Positions 3,032 through 10,000 of a stretch of DNA of 10,000 bases are shown one piece after another. This DNA comes from Clostridia bacterium (lineage in GTDB: Bacteria; Bacillota; Clostridia; Oscillospirales; CAG-272). A program made the translations under genes and the position numbers. The DNA lies in assembly GCA_033808535.1 (NCBI GenBank), contig JAPXNL010000047.1, positions 3,884 to 13,883 of the forward strand, read 5' to 3'. The stretch's first letter is position 1; every line of letters starts with the position of its first letter. A model generated the notes under the pieces. It was not told the origin of the DNA and did not search any database. It worked only from the letters and a program-made list of their open reading frames with translations.

Positions 3032-3664
3032 ATGAAAAAAATCATTGCGCTGATACTTGCAGCAATGCTCGTATTGGCAACTTCCGTTGCATTTTATTCC
3101 TGCAACAACGACACAACCGGTGACGGTAATGATACCACTGCCGGCGCAACGCTGAATGACACATCAGGTGATGGCGCGGATACTACCGCCGCGGGTGGAG
3201 ACAATACACAGGCAGGCGTCGATATTGACCTTCAGGCCAAAATAGACATCAGCTCCGTTAACGGAACAGCCGGCGCAGTCGAATCCGAAGGCCCCGCAAA
3301 CATTTTCGACGGCGATTCATCCACAAAATGGTGCGCACTCCAGGAGGGTGTCAGCGTCGAGTGGAAAATGACCGAGCCGGTCACCGTTAACTACTACTAC
3401 TTCACCACCGCAAACGATGCTCCCGAGCGCAACCCTGCAAGCTGGGTGTTCTACGGTTCTGCCGACGGTTCAAACTGGACCGAGCTTGACAAGGTCGAAG
3501 GCGCAACCCTGCCGACCGATTTCTTCACCGATTCAGAGAAATACACTGTCGACAATCCCCAGGCATTCGAGTACTATAAGCTTGAAGTCACTGCCATCGC
3601 AAGCCCGGGCGAAAATGTGACCCAGTTCTCCGAGTTCAATTTCTACCAGACAGCAGGAAAATAA
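3032..3664 (+). CDS. Secreted protein or lipoprotein with a low-complexity T/G/D-rich linker and a C-terminal F5/8 type C (discoidin, CBM32-like) carbohydrate-binding domain
   Basis: 210 aa. The N-terminus is signal-peptide-like (MKKIIALILAAMLVLATSVAFYSC). A Cys at position 24 makes it a possible lipoprotein, although FYSC is a non-canonical lipobox. An NDTTGDG/TSGDGADTT repetitive linker follows. The C-terminal domain carries hallmark discoidin motifs: NIFDGDSSTKWCA, WVFYGSADGSNWTEL and YYKLEV. Confidence 0.75.
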   Translation: MKKIIALILAAMLVLATSVAFYSCNNDTTGDGNDTTAGATLNDTSGDGADTTAAGGDNTQAGVDIDLQAKIDISSVNGTAGAVESEGPANIFDGDSSTKWCALQEGVSVEWKMTEPVTVNYYYFTTANDAPERNPASWVFYGSADGSNWTELDKVEGATLPTDFFTDSEKYTVDNPQAFEYYKLEVTAIASPGENVTQFSEFNFYQTAGK

Positions 3665-3758
3665 TAAATAACAGTATATAAAAACAAACCCGACAGGAAA
3701 GGCACGGTTTAATAGGGAAACTTGTTGAACCATACCCCAAACCGATACGGAAAAAGGA

Positions 3759-3791
3759 AGAGAGGCATTATCTCAATGATATTGCCTCTCT
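3759..3791 (-). terminator. Strong rho-independent terminator ending the minus-strand operon; it may also act on the convergent plus-strand gene
   Basis: Hairpin AGAGAGGCA-t-TATC / loop tcaat / GATA-t-TGCCTCTCT (13 bp with one mismatch). It begins 9 nt after the CD-NTase stop at 3800. On the minus strand it is followed by TCCTTTTTCCGTAT, a T-tract. On the plus strand it is followed by the weaker tcttgctcgtt. Confidence 0.6.
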
Positions 3792-3799
3792 CTTGCTCG

Positions 3800-5173
3800 T
3801 TATGAATGTCCAATTGGTACGTCAATATGGCCAATGGCTACACAGATACCATTCTTAATGATATAGCATTCAACATAATGTGGTCCATAAAAGTTAGTGG
3901 TTTCTTTTCTCTCGGGTTGGTTGGTTTTCAACAGATTGCCTCTAATACAGTTCCTTCTTTCAGCTTCAGCGCCAACATTTCTAACTTTCCACCATATATC
4001 ATACGGCTTCGGGACATTGCATTCTTTTATATAAAATCTCAGGCTTAAATTATGGGGCAAAAACTTTTTTAGAACTTTATCGATATAAACACTGATAGGG
4101 CCTGTTCTAAAACCATTCCCAGAAGCCTCACAATCAATTTCAACTTCATAAATTTCATTGACATTAACTTCGTCTTCAATAAACTCTTCAGTATTTGAAA
4201 AATTAACGGCATTTATATCAAACGCACCTTTGCTTAATGAAGCAGATTCATTGACCGAATCTGGATTCCAAAAGTCATGATTGAACACCTCACGCCATGC
4301 AGCGTATGCATCAAATTTACTGCAATTACTATTAAACAAAACATCTAGTTTCCCCAAATAAGTATCAAGCCTACTCCTTAAATTCTCCATTTTATCACGA
4401 TCGCTTTGTTTCAAAAGGAGAGATACAGTACTTTCTGTCGGATTATAAACTTCAATGTAAACATTAAGCCTGTCCCGAATGTTTTTCATCAAATAGTAAA
4501 ATGTCTCATCTAAACGGTCATACCCTGTATTTATTTGCTCATCGCAAAGCACTGTCTGTATTAGACCACCAGGCATAATCCACGAAGAACGTGATTTACT
4601 AAACGTTTTGAGCAAACGAACACATTTGCGCAGTTTAGCCCCTTTTGATCTTATTTGGTCACTGAACCAATTTGATATGGCTTTGGGGTCTCGGCTTCGC
4701 CACGCACTCCCGCCATGTTCATAACTGTATGTACCGTCGCTATTTAGTGTTCTTCTGTAAACAGCAAAATCTACATGATAACCATTACTATATTTTATTC
4801 TGACACAGTTTGTTTTTACTTCAGATTCTGTCCCGAGATTTCCCTTTTTGCGATTGATGGCATCTGCGACTATGTTTCTGACGGATAATGGACCCAAATT
4901 GTTGATATTGGCTGAGTCAAAAACAATAGCGACATCAATATCGTAGTCATTAGAATCATTTTGAATTACAGTATGCATAGCCATACTGCCCTGGGTCAAA
5001 GTCTCGGCAACACTATATGAAGTCTTATGCTCATCATTATACTCTTTGAGACCAGTTTTAAGCCTTCGAATATTTGTATTCCGTTTGGCGCGGAGGTCAT
5101 TTTGTGCGTCCTGGGGCAAAACCACTTCATCACAATAAAACTTTTCAAATTCTGCAGATAAATCGAACAACAT
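3800..5173 (-). CDS. cGAS/DncV-like nucleotidyltransferase (CD-NTase / SMODS-type cyclic oligonucleotide synthase) with an additional C-terminal beta-rich domain
   Basis: The ORF runs 3800..5188, where 5188 is a TTG. I prefer ATG 5173 because it has an AAAGGA RBS 6 nt upstream. Numbering residues from the 462-aa ORF: a helical N-terminus typical of CD-NTases (MLFDLSAEFEKFY...RRLKTGL), a G67-S68 motif, then D83-I-D85 (hDhDh), and a third acidic residue in GYHVD140FAVY. W..DP....W and LRKCVRLLKTFSKSR match the conserved (R/K)LLKxW region of CD-NTases and OAS proteins. About 140 residues of non-core sequence follow at the C-terminus. Confidence 0.75.
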   Translation of the reverse strand: MLFDLSAEFEKFYCDEVVLPQDAQNDLRAKRNTNIRRLKTGLKEYNDEHKTSYSVAETLTQGSMAMHTVIQNDSNDYDIDVAIVFDSANINNLGPLSVRNIVADAINRKKGNLGTESEVKTNCVRIKYSNGYHVDFAVYRRTLNSDGTYSYEHGGSAWRSRDPKAISNWFSDQIRSKGAKLRKCVRLLKTFSKSRSSWIMPGGLIQTVLCDEQINTGYDRLDETFYYLMKNIRDRLNVYIEVYNPTESTVSLLLKQSDRDKMENLRSRLDTYLGKLDVLFNSNCSKFDAYAAWREVFNHDFWNPDSVNESASLSKGAFDINAVNFSNTEEFIEDEVNVNEIYEVEIDCEASGNGFRTGPISVYIDKVLKKFLPHNLSLRFYIKECNVPKPYDIWWKVRNVGAEAERRNCIRGNLLKTNQPERKETTNFYGPHYVECYIIKNGICVAIGHIDVPIGHS

Positions 5174-5230
5174 TACACATCCTTTCAAACGGAATCGGTC
5201 ATATCGGCAATCATATCCAAAATTAGCAAA

Positions 5231-6358
5231 TCATTGCCCTGCAACCAGTTCATTATTGATTACCAGATTGCCCTTATTTTCGCCGGTAACAACTATACCG
5301 TACTTATATTTCGGTGATGCTGTTGATACATAATGATGTACCACAATCTCGGGAAATCTATTGTCTAAATGACCCAGCTTACAGCCAAGATCAAATGCAT
5401 AACAACTTGGCACAGCACTGACTAAATGAATCCGTGTTAAGTTTGGATAGATATTTTTGAGCTCTATTATCAATTCATTAGTTTTATTAACATAATCTCT
5501 TAACTGCATAATGCTGGTTATGGCATTATCTTTTGGTTTATCGATTCCAAGCCTTATTATAGGGTAGTTAAATTGCGTCAAATCAGAATCTTGCACTGTC
5601 TGTGTTATAGATACCGCAATAACCACCTCCGCGGAATCGTCGCCTGTCAATACTGCCTCTGTCAGAGCAGGTATTTTCTTGTTTTTTATCCACTTCATCG
5701 GGCTGACAATATGTTTATGTATCAACTCATAATAGATATCCTCGCTTCGCTTATATTCGAAGAACCGCTTTATCATACGCCCAGTCATACATGTCCCAGC
5801 GTATACTTCAAAGGGGATCGGAGCCATACCGGTAAAGCAAACTGTAGATGCATCAGAGCGAGCAGAAAACTCACTAACATATTCTTCAATCTGTGCTTTT
5901 GCTTTTTCCCATGTCTGTTGGTTAACATCGTTTACTGCCCAACGCAAATCGAGCACGGTTTCTTTTAATTGGTAATCCTTAAGCTTCAAAGAATTTATGG
6001 TTTCGACGTCGCTGATTTCGTGTTTGACTTTCCCTAACATATTCAAAACATAAACTCTCGTCCTGATTGAATGCCATAAAATTATACCGAAAATTATGAG
6101 AGCAATTCCACATCCTAATAAAACGTAATTAGTATCCGGGCTTTTTATATAGCCGTAAGCAGCGCCAATTTTTGTGTTGATATTCAAGAAAAAGTCAAAT
6201 TCGAAGCAGCCAAGAATACCGCTACCCAACAATCCGATTCCCTCATGAATTAAAAGAAGCGGCAGTGCTGACTGCTTCGATTTACTTATATTTATCACTA
6301 TAATCCAGGTGAGGAAAGCTAAAAAAAGAATTGCTATAGTAACTATAAGCCTTAACAT
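5231..6358 (-). CDS. Integral membrane protein (3 predicted TM helices) with a ~270-aa cytoplasmic CARF/SAVED-like putative cyclic-nucleotide sensor domain; a candidate CBASS effector of the TM-SAVED (Cap14-like) type
   Basis: 375 aa. The start is ATG 6358 with a GGGAGGTG RBS (plus-strand 6364-6371, reverse-complemented) 5 nt upstream. There are three hydrophobic segments (res 2-24, 32-60, 78-98). The soluble domain has Rossmann-like beta-strand motifs typical of CARF/SAVED domains (STVCFTGMAPIPFEVYAGTCM, EVVIAVSITQT, IHLVSAVPSCYAFDLGCKLG). The functional assignment is by architecture and motif resemblance only. Confidence 0.55.
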   Translation of the reverse strand: MLRLIVTIAILFLAFLTWIIVINISKSKQSALPLLLIHEGIGLLGSGILGCFEFDFFLNINTKIGAAYGYIKSPDTNYVLLGCGIALIIFGIILWHSIRTRVYVLNMLGKVKHEISDVETINSLKLKDYQLKETVLDLRWAVNDVNQQTWEKAKAQIEEYVSEFSARSDASTVCFTGMAPIPFEVYAGTCMTGRMIKRFFEYKRSEDIYYELIHKHIVSPMKWIKNKKIPALTEAVLTGDDSAEVVIAVSITQTVQDSDLTQFNYPIIRLGIDKPKDNAITSIMQLRDYVNKTNELIIELKNIYPNLTRIHLVSAVPSCYAFDLGCKLGHLDNRFPEIVVHHYVSTASPKYKYGIVVTGENKGNLVINNELVAGQ

Positions 6359-6380
6359 TGAAACACCTCCCTCATCAAAA

Positions 6381-6410
6381 TCTATAGTTTCATGCAGTAA
6401 ATCAACTCAA
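6381..6410 (-). promoter_or_regulatory. Candidate internal promoter overlapping the res stop codon, positioned to drive the two AT-rich downstream genes
   Basis: On the minus strand: TTGAGT (reverse complement of 6405-6410), an 18-nt spacer, then TATAGA (reverse complement of 6381-6386). This lies about 20 nt upstream of the RBS of the 375-aa gene. The match to consensus is only moderate. Confidence 0.25.
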
Positions 6411-9400
6411 CACCTTATCCAATAACGCCGCATAACTGTCCACTACGTCATATACAACAGAATCCGTGCTGATAGCCTTAAAATGCTCGCGAGCGCAGTG
6501 GATTTTTGCTTCCTCGACCATACGCAGCTGCATGGTGGACATGGAGCCTTTCGTCTCGGCAACAAAGTAGATATGCTTCACTTTGCCCTCGTGAAAAGCT
6601 ATCGCCCAGTCGGGGTTATATTTTCCTACAGGTGTGCTAATAAAAAAGCCATTCGGCAGCTTTACATAGACCGCCACTTCATTGCTGGTATCAACGCTCT
6701 CCGCAAAGGTTCTCTCATTTGAGGAATCATATAGGATATGGTCATATAGATGCTTCTTCGCGGCTATTGCGTTCACACCAAGCTGTCCCTTTAATGATGG
6801 TTCGGTAAAAATGGTGGTATCATAAACGGCATCCAGCTTATTGTAAGTGATGTGCTGAATGATGGTCGTTGCTTTTTGCTCGTTAATGATCTGTGCTGCC
6901 TTAATAATGAATTCCTCCGGATTATTCGCAAACTGGTCAAATACAGCCTTTTCTATTCCACGCAGGATGCTTACAACAGCTTTTCTGGTAAGGCCAGTTT
7001 CGGCGACCACTTTACCGACGAGGTCATATTTTACCGCGCTGCTTGCGGAAATTTCAGCTTTGTAAACCTCGTTTTCCTCCTTCAAGAAGGCTGACCCCTG
7101 TTGCAGTTGTTCCCGTGATTGAATATCGGTCATCGACCCGGTTTCTACCTTGAAAAATATTTTAGATACACGCAGTTCTCGGTTCAGCGCCGATATTGCT
7201 TTCTGAATCAATTCATCCTGGTCGAATTCCACCACATATACAGACTTGGCGTTTATATTAGCCCATAACTTCTGGAATTCCGGCAAGCCCAGCTTGGATT
7301 TGTCAAGCTTCAATTCAACATTGTTTTTCCGTGCGTTCTCAGGCTGCATGGCCCGGCTGTCGTAAATAGAATCGAGAATTGCTATTATTGACTCTTTGCA
7401 ATCGGCGGCTTCTTCGGCGATTTCAAGACTGCCGTTTTTCTTATCCTCATAATATTTGTCTGTAAGGATACCTTTCTTTACATATCCGCTGGTGATAAGC
7501 CCCTCGTAAATACTCTGGGCAAGTTCGATGTCTACAACCTGTTCAGCGCCGCCGGCATCTTTTATTACTTTGTTCTTAAAGAGATCTGCCGTTACCATTC
7601 GCGGCCTGTCGGCTACAGCCTCGGCAAGCTCGGTTTGAAGGCCTTTGGCGAAGCTGTCATAGCTTTCGTTCGCAATAACGGTAAGAACATTCACGTTATG
7701 GACATCCTCGCCCAGCAGGTTCGTATCCATACGTTCTCCGTATTGATTTACGGAGAGACGTAAGCCCCGCCCGACTTCCTGACGCTTGCGGACATCGCTG
7801 CCGCTCTGCTTGAGGGTGCATATCTGAAACACATTCGGATTGTCCCAGCCTTCACGGAGAGCAGAGTGAGAGAAAATAAACCTCACCGGCTCCCGGAGGT
7901 CCAGCAATCGCTCTTTATTTTTCATAATCAGGTCATAAGCGTCCGCATCGTCGGAGGTGCGCTCCTGCCTGTCGCCCAGCTTGCTGTCAATCATACGCTG
8001 GCTCTTTTTGTCTATGGAAAAATATCCCGCATGGGTTTCCTCAGCGGTTATACCGTCAAGATATTTAAAATACTCATCGCCATCACCGATTTCAAGCTGA
8101 AGGTTACTGATCACTTGCTTGTATTCTTCCTCGAACATATCGGCATACAGGCCATTAAAGGCTTGCCCGGAAGCGTCGTACTGCTTGTACTTTGCAACTT
8201 CATCAATGAAGAAAAGCGACAATACCTTGATGCCTTTATAGAACAACTGCCGTTCCCGCTCGATGTGAGAGAGGATGGTCTCGCGGATTTGGATGCGCCT
8301 GAGCTGCTCCTCGCTGACCGCCCCGATAACATCACCGGCAAAGAGCTTGATGCCGTTTGTAAACTCGATGGAGCTGTCTCTTCCGTCAATCCGCAACACG
8401 GTGTATCCGTTTTTGTATTCTGCAAGCTCACCGGAATTAGGAAACAGGTTGTACCCCTCGCCGACGGTACGCCGGGTCTTGCGGACACCGCTTGAACCTT
8501 TTACATCAAACTCAATGGTTGCAGTAGGGTTGCCCCTGGATAGGTTGATGCTTTCCAGATATACATATCCTTCGGTTGCCGTGCTGCCCGTAACAGAAAT
8601 GCCCTTAACGGCAATCTTTTTGACCAGCTTTTTGTTGTAGGCTTCCATTGCGTCCAGGCGGTAAATCATATTATAAACGCTGTCCTTCTTGTGTGTTGCG
8701 GAATAGCGCAGCGTAAACAGCGGATTGAATTCTTTCAGGCGCTCCTTTGTGGCAGCGCCTTCCACCGACTGAGGCTCGTCGATAATCAGTATGGGATTGG
8801 TTTTTGCAAGAATATCAATGGGCTTGCGGCTTCTGAACTCGTCCAGCTTCATGTAAATGCGGCGGGCATCCTTGCCGCGGGCGTTAAAGGCCTGCGAATT
8901 GATAATCATCACATTGATGGCGCTGTCTGAAGCGAAGCGGTCTATCTCCGTCAGCTGGGCGGAATTGTAGATAAAATACCGGATTTTCTTTCCGTATTCC
9001 TCCGCAAAATGTTCCTCTGTAATCTGAAAAGATTTATATACGCCCTCGCGTATGGCGACGCTGGGCACAACGACAATGAACTTGCTCCAGCCGTATCGCT
9101 TGTTCAGCTCGTACATGGTTTTAATATATGTATAGGTCTTGCCCACGCCGGTTTCCATTTCCACGGTCAGGTTATACCGGCCCTCCAATTGCCTGGAAGG
9201 CTCAATCTGGTTGCTGCGCTGGATTCTGTTGATGTTTTCGAGGATAACCCCGTCGTTCAATTCCGGCACGAGCCTGGAGTTGCCGAAACCTGTAAAGCGT
9301 TCCGCTTCATCGAGCGCTATTTGCTCGTTTTTTACATAACCCCTGTCCATCATATAGCTGGGCGTGAGGTACGGCTGTCCGGCAAACACGTCACATACCG

Positions 9401-9449
9401 CCTTTGCCGCATCTGCCTGGAATTTTTGATGCTTGAATTTCAGCTTCAT
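6402..9449 (-). CDS. res: Type III restriction endonuclease Res-subunit-like protein: N-terminal SF2 helicase (ResIII) fused to a C-terminal PD-(D/E)xK nuclease
   Basis: 1015 aa. The start is ATG 9449 with an AAGGAGG RBS 9 nt upstream. The N-terminus MKLKFKHQKFQADAAKAVCDVFAGQPY is Res-like. Helicase motif I is METGVGKT, motif II is LIIDEPQ, motif III is YSATHK and motif VI is QEVGRGLRL. A C-terminal PD-ExK motif is present: YNPDWAIAF ... IYFVAETKG. Confidence 0.85.
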   Translation of the reverse strand: MKLKFKHQKFQADAAKAVCDVFAGQPYLTPSYMMDRGYVKNEQIALDEAERFTGFGNSRLVPELNDGVILENINRIQRSNQIEPSRQLEGRYNLTVEMETGVGKTYTYIKTMYELNKRYGWSKFIVVVPSVAIREGVYKSFQITEEHFAEEYGKKIRYFIYNSAQLTEIDRFASDSAINVMIINSQAFNARGKDARRIYMKLDEFRSRKPIDILAKTNPILIIDEPQSVEGAATKERLKEFNPLFTLRYSATHKKDSVYNMIYRLDAMEAYNKKLVKKIAVKGISVTGSTATEGYVYLESINLSRGNPTATIEFDVKGSSGVRKTRRTVGEGYNLFPNSGELAEYKNGYTVLRIDGRDSSIEFTNGIKLFAGDVIGAVSEEQLRRIQIRETILSHIERERQLFYKGIKVLSLFFIDEVAKYKQYDASGQAFNGLYADMFEEEYKQVISNLQLEIGDGDEYFKYLDGITAEETHAGYFSIDKKSQRMIDSKLGDRQERTSDDADAYDLIMKNKERLLDLREPVRFIFSHSALREGWDNPNVFQICTLKQSGSDVRKRQEVGRGLRLSVNQYGERMDTNLLGEDVHNVNVLTVIANESYDSFAKGLQTELAEAVADRPRMVTADLFKNKVIKDAGGAEQVVDIELAQSIYEGLITSGYVKKGILTDKYYEDKKNGSLEIAEEAADCKESIIAILDSIYDSRAMQPENARKNNVELKLDKSKLGLPEFQKLWANINAKSVYVVEFDQDELIQKAISALNRELRVSKIFFKVETGSMTDIQSREQLQQGSAFLKEENEVYKAEISASSAVKYDLVGKVVAETGLTRKAVVSILRGIEKAVFDQFANNPEEFIIKAAQIINEQKATTIIQHITYNKLDAVYDTTIFTEPSLKGQLGVNAIAAKKHLYDHILYDSSNERTFAESVDTSNEVAVYVKLPNGFFISTPVGKYNPDWAIAFHEGKVKHIYFVAETKGSMSTMQLRMVEEAKIHCAREHFKAISTDSVVYDVVDSYAALLDKVLS

Positions 9450-10000
9450 TCGTCCTTGCCTCCTTCGCCCTTTAAGTATTTTGCCATCTCTCTATCAAAT
9501 TGCGAAATATAGTCCCTGTCCTGCCGAACGCGGAACTGCTCGTAGATATCTTCCGCTTTTTTTACAGCATCCTCATGGGAAATCGTGCCTTTGCCTTCAA
9601 GGACTTTCCGGCGGTTGTTCTTAAGAAAGTTATCCGTCTCACGCAGCCAGTCCGCCATGCTCATCGGCACTTCATCCTCTGCCATTAACTCGGCATAGTC
9701 GATAAACATGGTTACAATACGGTTCAGTCGAGAAAGCTCCTTTTCGTTGAGGTAGTTCTTGGCGATAACCACATCCCGTTTGAGAATTTTGCCGTCCGGA
9801 GCCGCTTTCCATGTCGTCAGCCCCATTGTCGGATGTTCAAGGCTGACCCGCTCGGCAATCAGCTCGGCAGCGGTCTTTCCGGTTATGGCATAATGGAGCT
9901 TGTTCTGCACAAAGGAATAAAACTCTTTTGTCAGGCTGCTGTTTTTGTCATAGTCATAGCTGCATTGCTCGAACACATCGGCAATCTTCTGGTAGGCTCT
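9446..10000 (-). CDS. 3' portion of a RhuM-family (PF13310-like) protein gene; the 5' end lies beyond the window
   Basis: The frame is open from 10000 down to TGA 9448-9446, and the track's 'M' at 9976 is an internal GTG. The motifs FVQNKLHYAITGKTAAELIAERV...MGLTTWKAAPDGKILKRDVVIAKNYLNEKELSRLNRIVTMFIDYAELMA...MSMADWL...KGTISHEDAVKKAEDIYEQF match my recollection of RhuM-family C-terminal regions. The stop overlaps the res start as ATGA. Confidence 0.55.
   Translation of the reverse strand, partial: RAYQKIADVFEQCSYDYDKNSSLTKEFYSFVQNKLHYAITGKTAAELIAERVSLEHPTMGLTTWKAAPDGKILKRDVVIAKNYLNEKELSRLNRIVTMFIDYAELMAEDEVPMSMADWLRETDNFLKNNRRKVLEGKGTISHEDAVKKAEDIYEQFRVRQDRDYISQFDREMAKYLKGEGGKDE

Follow-up and report, generated by a model that had tools for sequence, protein, structure and literature searches.

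Do the two adjacent genes between positions 3800 and 6358 of a 10,000-nt stretch from a Clostridia bacterium (contig JAPXNL010000047.1; the whole stretch is hereafter the window) encode a minimal CBASS (an anti-phage signaling system that is based on cyclic oligonucleotides), and if so, does it belong to a recognized class? An initial annotation had proposed a type I CBASS in which the effector gene precedes the cyclase gene, had called this order unusual and had left room for an unclassified variant. We compared both proteins with sequence profiles, known folds and the PADLOC CBASS models, as that annotation had suggested. Evidence from hidden Markov models (HMMs), folds and gene arrangement agreed on a type I system with the effector gene first, and we regard the pair, here named cap14 and cdnB, as almost certainly an operon of the CdnB-Cap14 class within the type I CBASS anti-phage systems. 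The locus is a moderately diverged further case of this characterized and structurally solved system.

Layout of the predicted operon

The six-frame list of open reading frames (ORFs) agreed with the initial annotation on the coordinates of two adjacent, co-directional genes and on the 57-nt gap between them (5174-5230). The strand had been missed: both ORFs lie on the minus strand and are transcribed from 6358 to 3800, and the membrane-protein gene, cap14, therefore comes first. The initial annotation had claimed a strong ribosome-binding site; direct reading showed a site before each gene (Table 1).

For the cyclase gene, the proposed coordinates 3800..5173 stood, but a protein length of 462 aa and the catalytic residue numbers D83/D85 did not. 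The longer protein starts at a TTG codon at 5188, which was rejected: homologues, public gene calls and the orthologue in Bacillus thuringiensis Bt407 all begin at the ATG, the homologues with MxxLS, and the TTG start would place the ribosome-binding site within the longer ORF. Counted from the ATG, CdnB has 457 aa, and the former D83/D85 are thus D78/D80. Downstream of cdnB, RNA folding recovered a terminator hairpin of -21.4 kcal/mol (z = -3.95), and none of 200 shuffled sequences folded equally well. A consensus terminator scan did not pick it up, probably because the scan uses loops of 3-8 nt and the outer stem encloses 15 nt.

The Bt407 operon served as the reference. It was found by tblastn of plasmids on BTB_502p (NC_018878.1), which carries the BtCBASS studied by Tak et al. 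(PMC10402079). The BtCBASS proteins are WP_001028553.1 and WP_000282552.1, and the Bt407 annotation places a SAVED protein of 368 aa directly 5' of a nucleotidyltransferase (NTase) of 431 aa, with 19 nt between them. CdnB from the window was 42% identical to BtCdnB (E 7e-118), the NTase core being the best conserved part and the C-terminal AGS-C domain poorly conserved; Cap14 was 31% identical to BtCap14 (E 2e-40).

Cap14, a predicted transmembrane SAVED effector

Cap14 matched SAVED profiles of Pfam (3.3e-24) and NCBIfam (1.9e-23, residues 110-357), the PADLOC models Effector 2TM PDLC00676 (2.3e-70) and SAVED_TM (8.5e-67), and the PDB sequences 9wq2 (1.8e-38) and 9om7 (3.5e-34). A Foldseek search with the AlphaFold2 (AF2) model returned first 9WQ2/9WQ3, "3TM-SAVED dimer/filament bound to 2'3'-cGAMP" (cGAMP, cyclic GMP-AMP), at 3e-28. 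The match to 9OM7, the BtCap14 SAVED domain with 2',3'-cGAMP, had a TM-score of 0.89 on the target and a root-mean-square deviation (rmsd) of 2.1 A; SAVED domains of Cap5, CalpL and Cap4 ranked lower. The descriptions of 9WQ2, 9WQ3 and 9OM7 are those of the fold-search table. Within the SAVED domain, the motif TGMAPIP (residues 176-182) was invariant in the homologue alignment. The initial annotation had recognized a SAVED-like soluble domain by motif resemblance, and the profile and fold searches bear this out. Its suggestion of an unclassified variant does not hold, as Cap14 falls in the named and solved Cap14 / 3TM-SAVED family; an unclassified sensor domain was likewise discarded on the HMM and fold evidence, which identifies SAVED/Cap14.

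The three transmembrane (TM) segments of the initial annotation were recovered both by hydropathy, as hydrophobic segments at residues ~4-22, 34-52 and 80-98, and in the AF2 model, as helices 2-24, 31-51 and 78-99. The model also contains a beta-hairpin (E55-62/E65-72) between helix 2 and helix 3. Its confidence score (pLDDT) was 81.1 overall and lower, 53-79, in the N-terminal region. The homologues supplied for modeling came from a word-based search that gave 21 proteins, enough for a usable model and not a census of the family. BtCap14 has likewise been described with three putative TM helices (PMC10402079).

CdnB, a predicted clade-B cyclase with an AGS-C domain

CdnB matched the PADLOC CBASS cyclase model PDLC00778 over its full length (3e-197). 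Its Pfam matches were AGS_C (PF18134, 3.9e-44), the DncV-like NTFase family (1.9e-16) and SMODS (2.7e-08), with PF21654 and PF18144 above the Pfam gathering cut-offs. The NCBIfam equivalog models scored below their cut-offs, for which narrow model building could be the reason. HMM E-values of 3e-197 (cyclase) and 2e-70 (effector) put the family match far beyond chance.

The signature of a cGAS/DncV-like nucleotidyltransferase (CD-NTase) reported by the initial annotation, namely GS, DxD, a third Asp and an LLKxF region, was found in full. G62-S63, D78-I79-D80 and D135 (in GYHVDF) were invariant among 25 aligned homologues, and the last element is present as LLKTF. The first three elements align with the GS, DxD and GYHxD motifs of BfCdnB, and DxD aligns with the DID motif of BtCdnB, whose DID79AIA mutant abolished defence (PMC10402079).

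The initial annotation had overlooked the C-terminal AGS-C domain. In the AF2 model of CdnB (pLDDT 83.6) residues 344-451 are all-beta. AGS-C is carried by ~40% of type I CBASS cyclases and by nearly all of those in clade B (10.1101/2023.05.21.541620). The best PDB sequence match was 7LJO (8.1e-19), which is CdnB of Bacteroides fragilis (BfCdnB), a member of clade B04 (CdnB04; PMC10442399). The same structure, 7ljo, was the first Foldseek match (4e-17; TM-score 0.88 on the target, rmsd 2.8 A), followed by Deinococcus DwCdnB and, lower, by DncV, CdnC, CdnD and CdnG. Judged by its best PDB sequence and fold matches and by its 42% identity to BtCdnB, the protein is predicted to be a clade-B CD-NTase, and we expect it to belong to sub-clade B02.

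As the initial annotation had noted, no Cap2, Cap3, HORMA or TRIP13 gene was present in the window; none was found either within ~10 kb on each side of the pair in L001, the longest public contig with proteins identical to those of the pair. The assignment to type I rests on this absence together with the adjacent, co-directional cyclase and effector genes.

Table 1. Features of the window, with coordinates, strand and the evidence for each.
Feature	Coordinates	Strand	Evidence
cap14: predicted 375-aa 3TM-SAVED CBASS effector (Cap14 / Saf-2TM-SAVED)	5231..6358	(-)	ORF, ATG start at 6358
Cap14 N-terminal membrane module, residues 1-99 (predicted)	6062..6358	(-)	hydropathy, AF2 model, fold match to 9wq2
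Cap14 SAVED nucleotide-sensor domain, residues ~110-357 (predicted)	5288..6031	(-)	NCBIfam, alignment, Foldseek
cdnB: predicted 457-aa clade-B CD-NTase with fused AGS-C domain	3800..5173	(-)	ORF, ATG at 5173
CdnB catalytic core codons: G62-S63 4985-4990; D78 4940-4942; D80 4934-4936; D135 4769-4771	4769..4990	(-)	sequence
CdnB AGS-C (Ig-like) C-terminal domain, residues ~327-454	3812..4195	(-)	Pfam PF18134, 127/129 profile positions
cap14 ribosome-binding site GAGGGAGGTG	6364..6373	(-)	direct reading; GGAGG 7 nt 5' of ATG
cdnB ribosome-binding site AAAGGA	5180..5185	(-)	direct reading; spacing to ATG 6 nt
Intrinsic terminator 3' of cdnB: hairpin with 10-bp outer stem and 4 inner pairs, then UCCUUUUU	3750..3792	(-)	RNA fold
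Type III restriction enzyme Res subunit (res)	6402..9449	(-)	PADLOC REase_III 8e-291; Pfam ResIII, RE_endonuc
RhuM-family gene, C-terminal part, cut by window edge	9446..10000	(-)	PADLOC candidate PDC-S05, 2.7e-66
Downstream end of shared defence block	3698	.	homology to related loci stops, GC step

Effector position follows effector type

Gene order was surveyed with one genome per species in the best 80 of 486 stretches encoding relatives of the cyclase. Two effector groups accounted for 74 of these 80 loci. Cap14 lay immediately upstream of the cyclase on the same strand, at a distance of 12-173 nt, in every locus with a detectable Cap14 (38/38). In 36 loci a 2TM-SMODS-associated NUDIX protein (PF18167) of ~300 aa (191 aa in one copy) was encoded immediately downstream of the cyclase, and no surveyed locus was seen to have both effectors. 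The record of C. difficile BI1 also places cap14 directly upstream of cdnB, as in Bt407. The effector-first order is therefore not unusual: with Cap14 upstream in 38 loci and 2TM-NUDIX downstream in 36, the position of the effector gene is tied to effector type in this CdnB-AGS-C clade, and cap14-first is the rule.

Proposed mechanism and identity of the signal

The mechanism that we propose follows what is described for the CdnB-Cap14 family in PMC10402079 and in a review (PMC13434031) that summarizes Gao et al. 2026 and Tak et al. 2026. Phage infection would activate CdnB, possibly via its Ig-like AGS-C domain; escape mutations have been traced to virion assembly proteins in type I systems of other kinds (10.1101/2023.05.21.541620). 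The cyclic dinucleotide that CdnB would then produce is most probably 2',3'-cGAMP, as with its Bacillus, Clostridium and Desulfotomaculum relatives, and by this analogy we name that product with fair rather than high confidence. The cytoplasmic SAVED domain of Cap14 would bind 2',3'-cGAMP with nanomolar affinity, and binding would drive head-to-tail oligomerization, from an inactive monomer to a dimer and on to filaments; the inactive monomeric start is credited to Gao et al. 2026 in the review (PMC13434031). The hairpin between the TM helices would rearrange and the filaments would cluster the membrane modules. Cap14 would finally breach the membrane, described for the family as either an ion-conducting pore or a linear fissure, and the cell would die before the phage matures (abortive infection). 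For the present locus we infer from characterized relatives the identity of the product, its binding by Cap14, the formation of membrane-disrupting filaments and the role in phage defence.

Nothing contradicts membership of the CdnB-Cap14 family. Two findings weigh against our reading of the locus. Identity to the characterized proteins is only moderate, at 42% in the cyclase (far less within AGS-C) and 31% in Cap14, so that product or ligand specificity could differ. In addition, a consensus scan detected no promoter of the pair's own, so that its expression hangs on a putative transcript.

The first of these findings bears on an alternative in which the CdnB-Cap14 pair is real and its signal is 3',2'- or 3',3'-cGAMP or another cyclic dinucleotide, not 2',3'-cGAMP. 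Besides the modest identity to BtCap14 and BtCdnB, this alternative has in its favor that clade-B enzymes are not uniform and that the solved enzymes BfCdnB and DwCdnB have different effectors as partners; structure 8ysq, a Cap5 SAVED, comes from the same Deinococcus species as DwCdnB. However, 2',3'-cGAMP or the linear precursor of it was the product of all three Cap14-associated or B02 enzymes tested, those from Bt, Cb and Da (PMC10402079). Moreover, 2',3'-cGAMP is present in both independent Cap14-type structures, and the SAVED domain modeled here superposes on that of BtCap14 at 2.1 A. We consider a different nucleotide possible but doubtful, and retain 2',3'-cGAMP as the preferred signal.

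Genomic setting and expression of the pair

cap14 begins 43 nt past the stop codon of the type III restriction gene res, on the same strand. No hairpin was found in the spacer between them, and a crude consensus scan of the minus strand from 6359 to 6700 detected no sigma-70-like promoter. Pelotomaculum terephthalicicum JT (L008) and a Desulfitobacterium metagenome-assembled genome (MAG; L010) retain the res-cap14-cdnB junction with a spacer 38-52 nt long, and the res-cap14 junction is common to at least three Peptococcaceae-type genomes. The genomes closest to the locus are those of Pelotomaculum / Desulfotomaculia-type Firmicutes. Compared with the window, Res, CdnB and Cap14 were 98%, 92% and 90% identical in P. 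terephthalicicum JT and 91%, 87% and 79% identical in the Desulfitobacterium MAG.

The pair could accordingly be a non-autonomous extension of a type III restriction-modification (R-M) cluster (Mod-RhuM-Res-Cap14-CdnB), expressed only in that operon as a second line of defence. The short spacer free of a hairpin, the negative promoter scan and the junction kept in P. terephthalicicum and the Desulfitobacterium MAG all favor this idea. Several observations oppose it. GC content is ~0.34-0.41 in the CBASS pair, 0.44-0.53 in res and ~0.51 beyond 3698, and because the GC of the pair is clearly below that of res, the pair was acquired separately. A Res homologue was found nearby in none of the more distant Cap14-CdnB loci. 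The Bt407 system, which has no adjacent R-M genes, defends alone under its endogenous promoter (PMC10402079). The promoter scan, for its part, was only a crude consensus search. Unrelated systems also cluster in defence islands as a rule, which speaks against a dependent module. We therefore think it unlikely that the pair is non-autonomous. The pair may owe its transcription to read-through from res, but adjacency within a defence island is a simpler reading than co-transcription of restriction and abortive-infection layers. Less likely again is a CBASS transcriptionally fused to the type III restriction operon and regulated only with it, the pair in that case perhaps also using a nucleotide other than 2',3'-cGAMP. 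If this were true, the abortive-infection module would never be expressed or regulated apart from the restriction enzyme.

In a further alternative, the membrane protein is unrelated to the NTase, which is a non-signaling Pol-beta-fold enzyme of the MNT toxin-antitoxin or the aminoglycoside NTase kind. It has nothing in its favor and can be dismissed with near certainty: the initial annotation had named a best match of that kind as refuting, but the Pfam, PADLOC, PDB sequence and fold searches all returned CD-NTases, no MNT, KNTase or HEPN family matched CdnB in the Pfam search even at E 0.1, and the partner is a SAVED protein in a pairing that recurs in 38 genomes.

The downstream boundary of the shared defence block was placed by comparison with related loci. 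Homology by blastn ended at 3698 against L001, L003, L007 and L008, at 3700 against L010 and at 3681 against L009, and GC climbs there from ~0.36-0.40 to ~0.51. Past 3698 the neighbors vary, with an F5/8-type-C gene in the window and a DDE transposase and integrase in L001. In the window, the neighbors of the pair encode Res, RhuM, the F5/8-type-C protein, a small membrane protein and an SPFH protein.

Identity across the block was uneven. Compared with the window, contigs L001-L005 had Cap14 100%, CdnB 99-100% and Res only 97.9% identical, and the trend in P. terephthalicicum was the opposite. This mosaic divergence suggests either that the R-M and CBASS parts have recombined or that the CBASS evolves faster.

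In the public contigs the full cluster (L001 1-9957) encodes an SNF2 helicase (1074 aa), a DUF4391 protein, an SLFN/AlbA_2 protein, an N6/N4 methyltransferase, RhuM and Res, followed by Cap14 and CdnB. In L003 the AlbA_2 gene is replaced by a 158-aa ORF without a recorded Pfam family. The RhuM-family gene overlaps res by 4 nt, and in L001 (5894-6913) a full copy separates the type III mod gene from res. Since a 35-aa ORF takes its place in the near-identical contigs L004 (6780-6887) and L005, the RhuM gene acts as a cassette that varies within the R-M operon.

On the plus strand, ~1.9 kb beyond the cyclase, the window encodes a 470-aa SPFH/flotillin-like protein (524-1936). In Bt407 an NfeD-SPFH operon (L089 1610-3279) lies ~2 kb beyond the CBASS cyclase. 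A link between CBASS and SPFH was considered and discarded: a homologue of the SPFH protein in the window occurred in none of 86 related loci, the flank past 3698 differs from that of close relatives and PADLOC gave no match, and the proximity is therefore probably a coincidence. Two further plus-strand genes encode a 210-aa protein (3032-3664), possibly a lipoprotein, with a hydrophobic N-terminal segment, then Cys24 and an F5/8 type C (discoidin) domain, and a 176-aa protein (2091-2621) with a hydrophobic N-terminal region and CxxC...CxxC near its C-terminus. Neither matched a defence model.

Significance

The significance of the locus lies mainly in annotation, as the 2',3'-cGAMP chemistry of CdnB-Cap14, the structure of the 3TM-SAVED filament and the role in phage defence are already published. 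With this locus the CdnB-Cap14 family gains a diverged system, found in an anaerobic syntroph, and so distant an orthologue could help to map the SAVED and AGS-C residues that are truly conserved. Because cap14-first is the rule in this cyclase clade, annotation pipelines should not flag an effector-first order as anomalous. The conserved res-cap14 junction in which no promoter was detected is a mildly interesting remainder; it could mean that both layers are co-transcribed, and its tightness makes it a convenient case for studying co-expression of restriction and abortive infection.

Comparison with known systems

The nearest characterized system is CdnB-Cap14 of Bt407. Both are two-gene operons with cap14 directly upstream of cdnB and no accessory genes, and both combine a 3TM and SAVED Cap14 with a clade-B core that carries a DID motif and an AGS-C-type C-terminal extension. 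They differ in the AGS-C region, which shows poor conservation and has 26 aa more in the window, and in the intergenic gap, 19 nt in Bt407 versus 57 nt here. The Bt407 pair is driven by a promoter of its own and has no R-M genes beside it, whereas the pair in the window abuts a type III res, and the hosts are a Bacillus and a Pelotomaculum-like anaerobe.

Among solved structures, 9WQ2/9WQ3 gave the best full-length fold match to Cap14 (E 3e-28, TM-score 0.64-0.72) as well as the best PDB sequence match; like Cap14, they have the TGxAPIP motif and a beta-hairpin that separates TM2 from TM3. The structural alignment gave ~27-29% identity. Type I CBASS of the CdnB plus 2TM-Sa_NUDIX kind, sister systems in this cyclase clade, share a cyclase that is 44-55% identical, the AGS-C fusion and the two-gene operon, but their effector is the 2TM-SMODS-associated NUDIX protein, encoded downstream of the cyclase (36 loci). 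CdnG/CdnB-Cap5 (SAVED-HNH) systems have the SAVED fold (Foldseek 5e-15 to the Cap5 SAVED domain) and the logic of ligand-induced oligomerization in common with the predicted Cap14; in place of a membrane module they carry an HNH nuclease effector domain, and they bind 3',2'-cGAMP or a nucleotide related to it.

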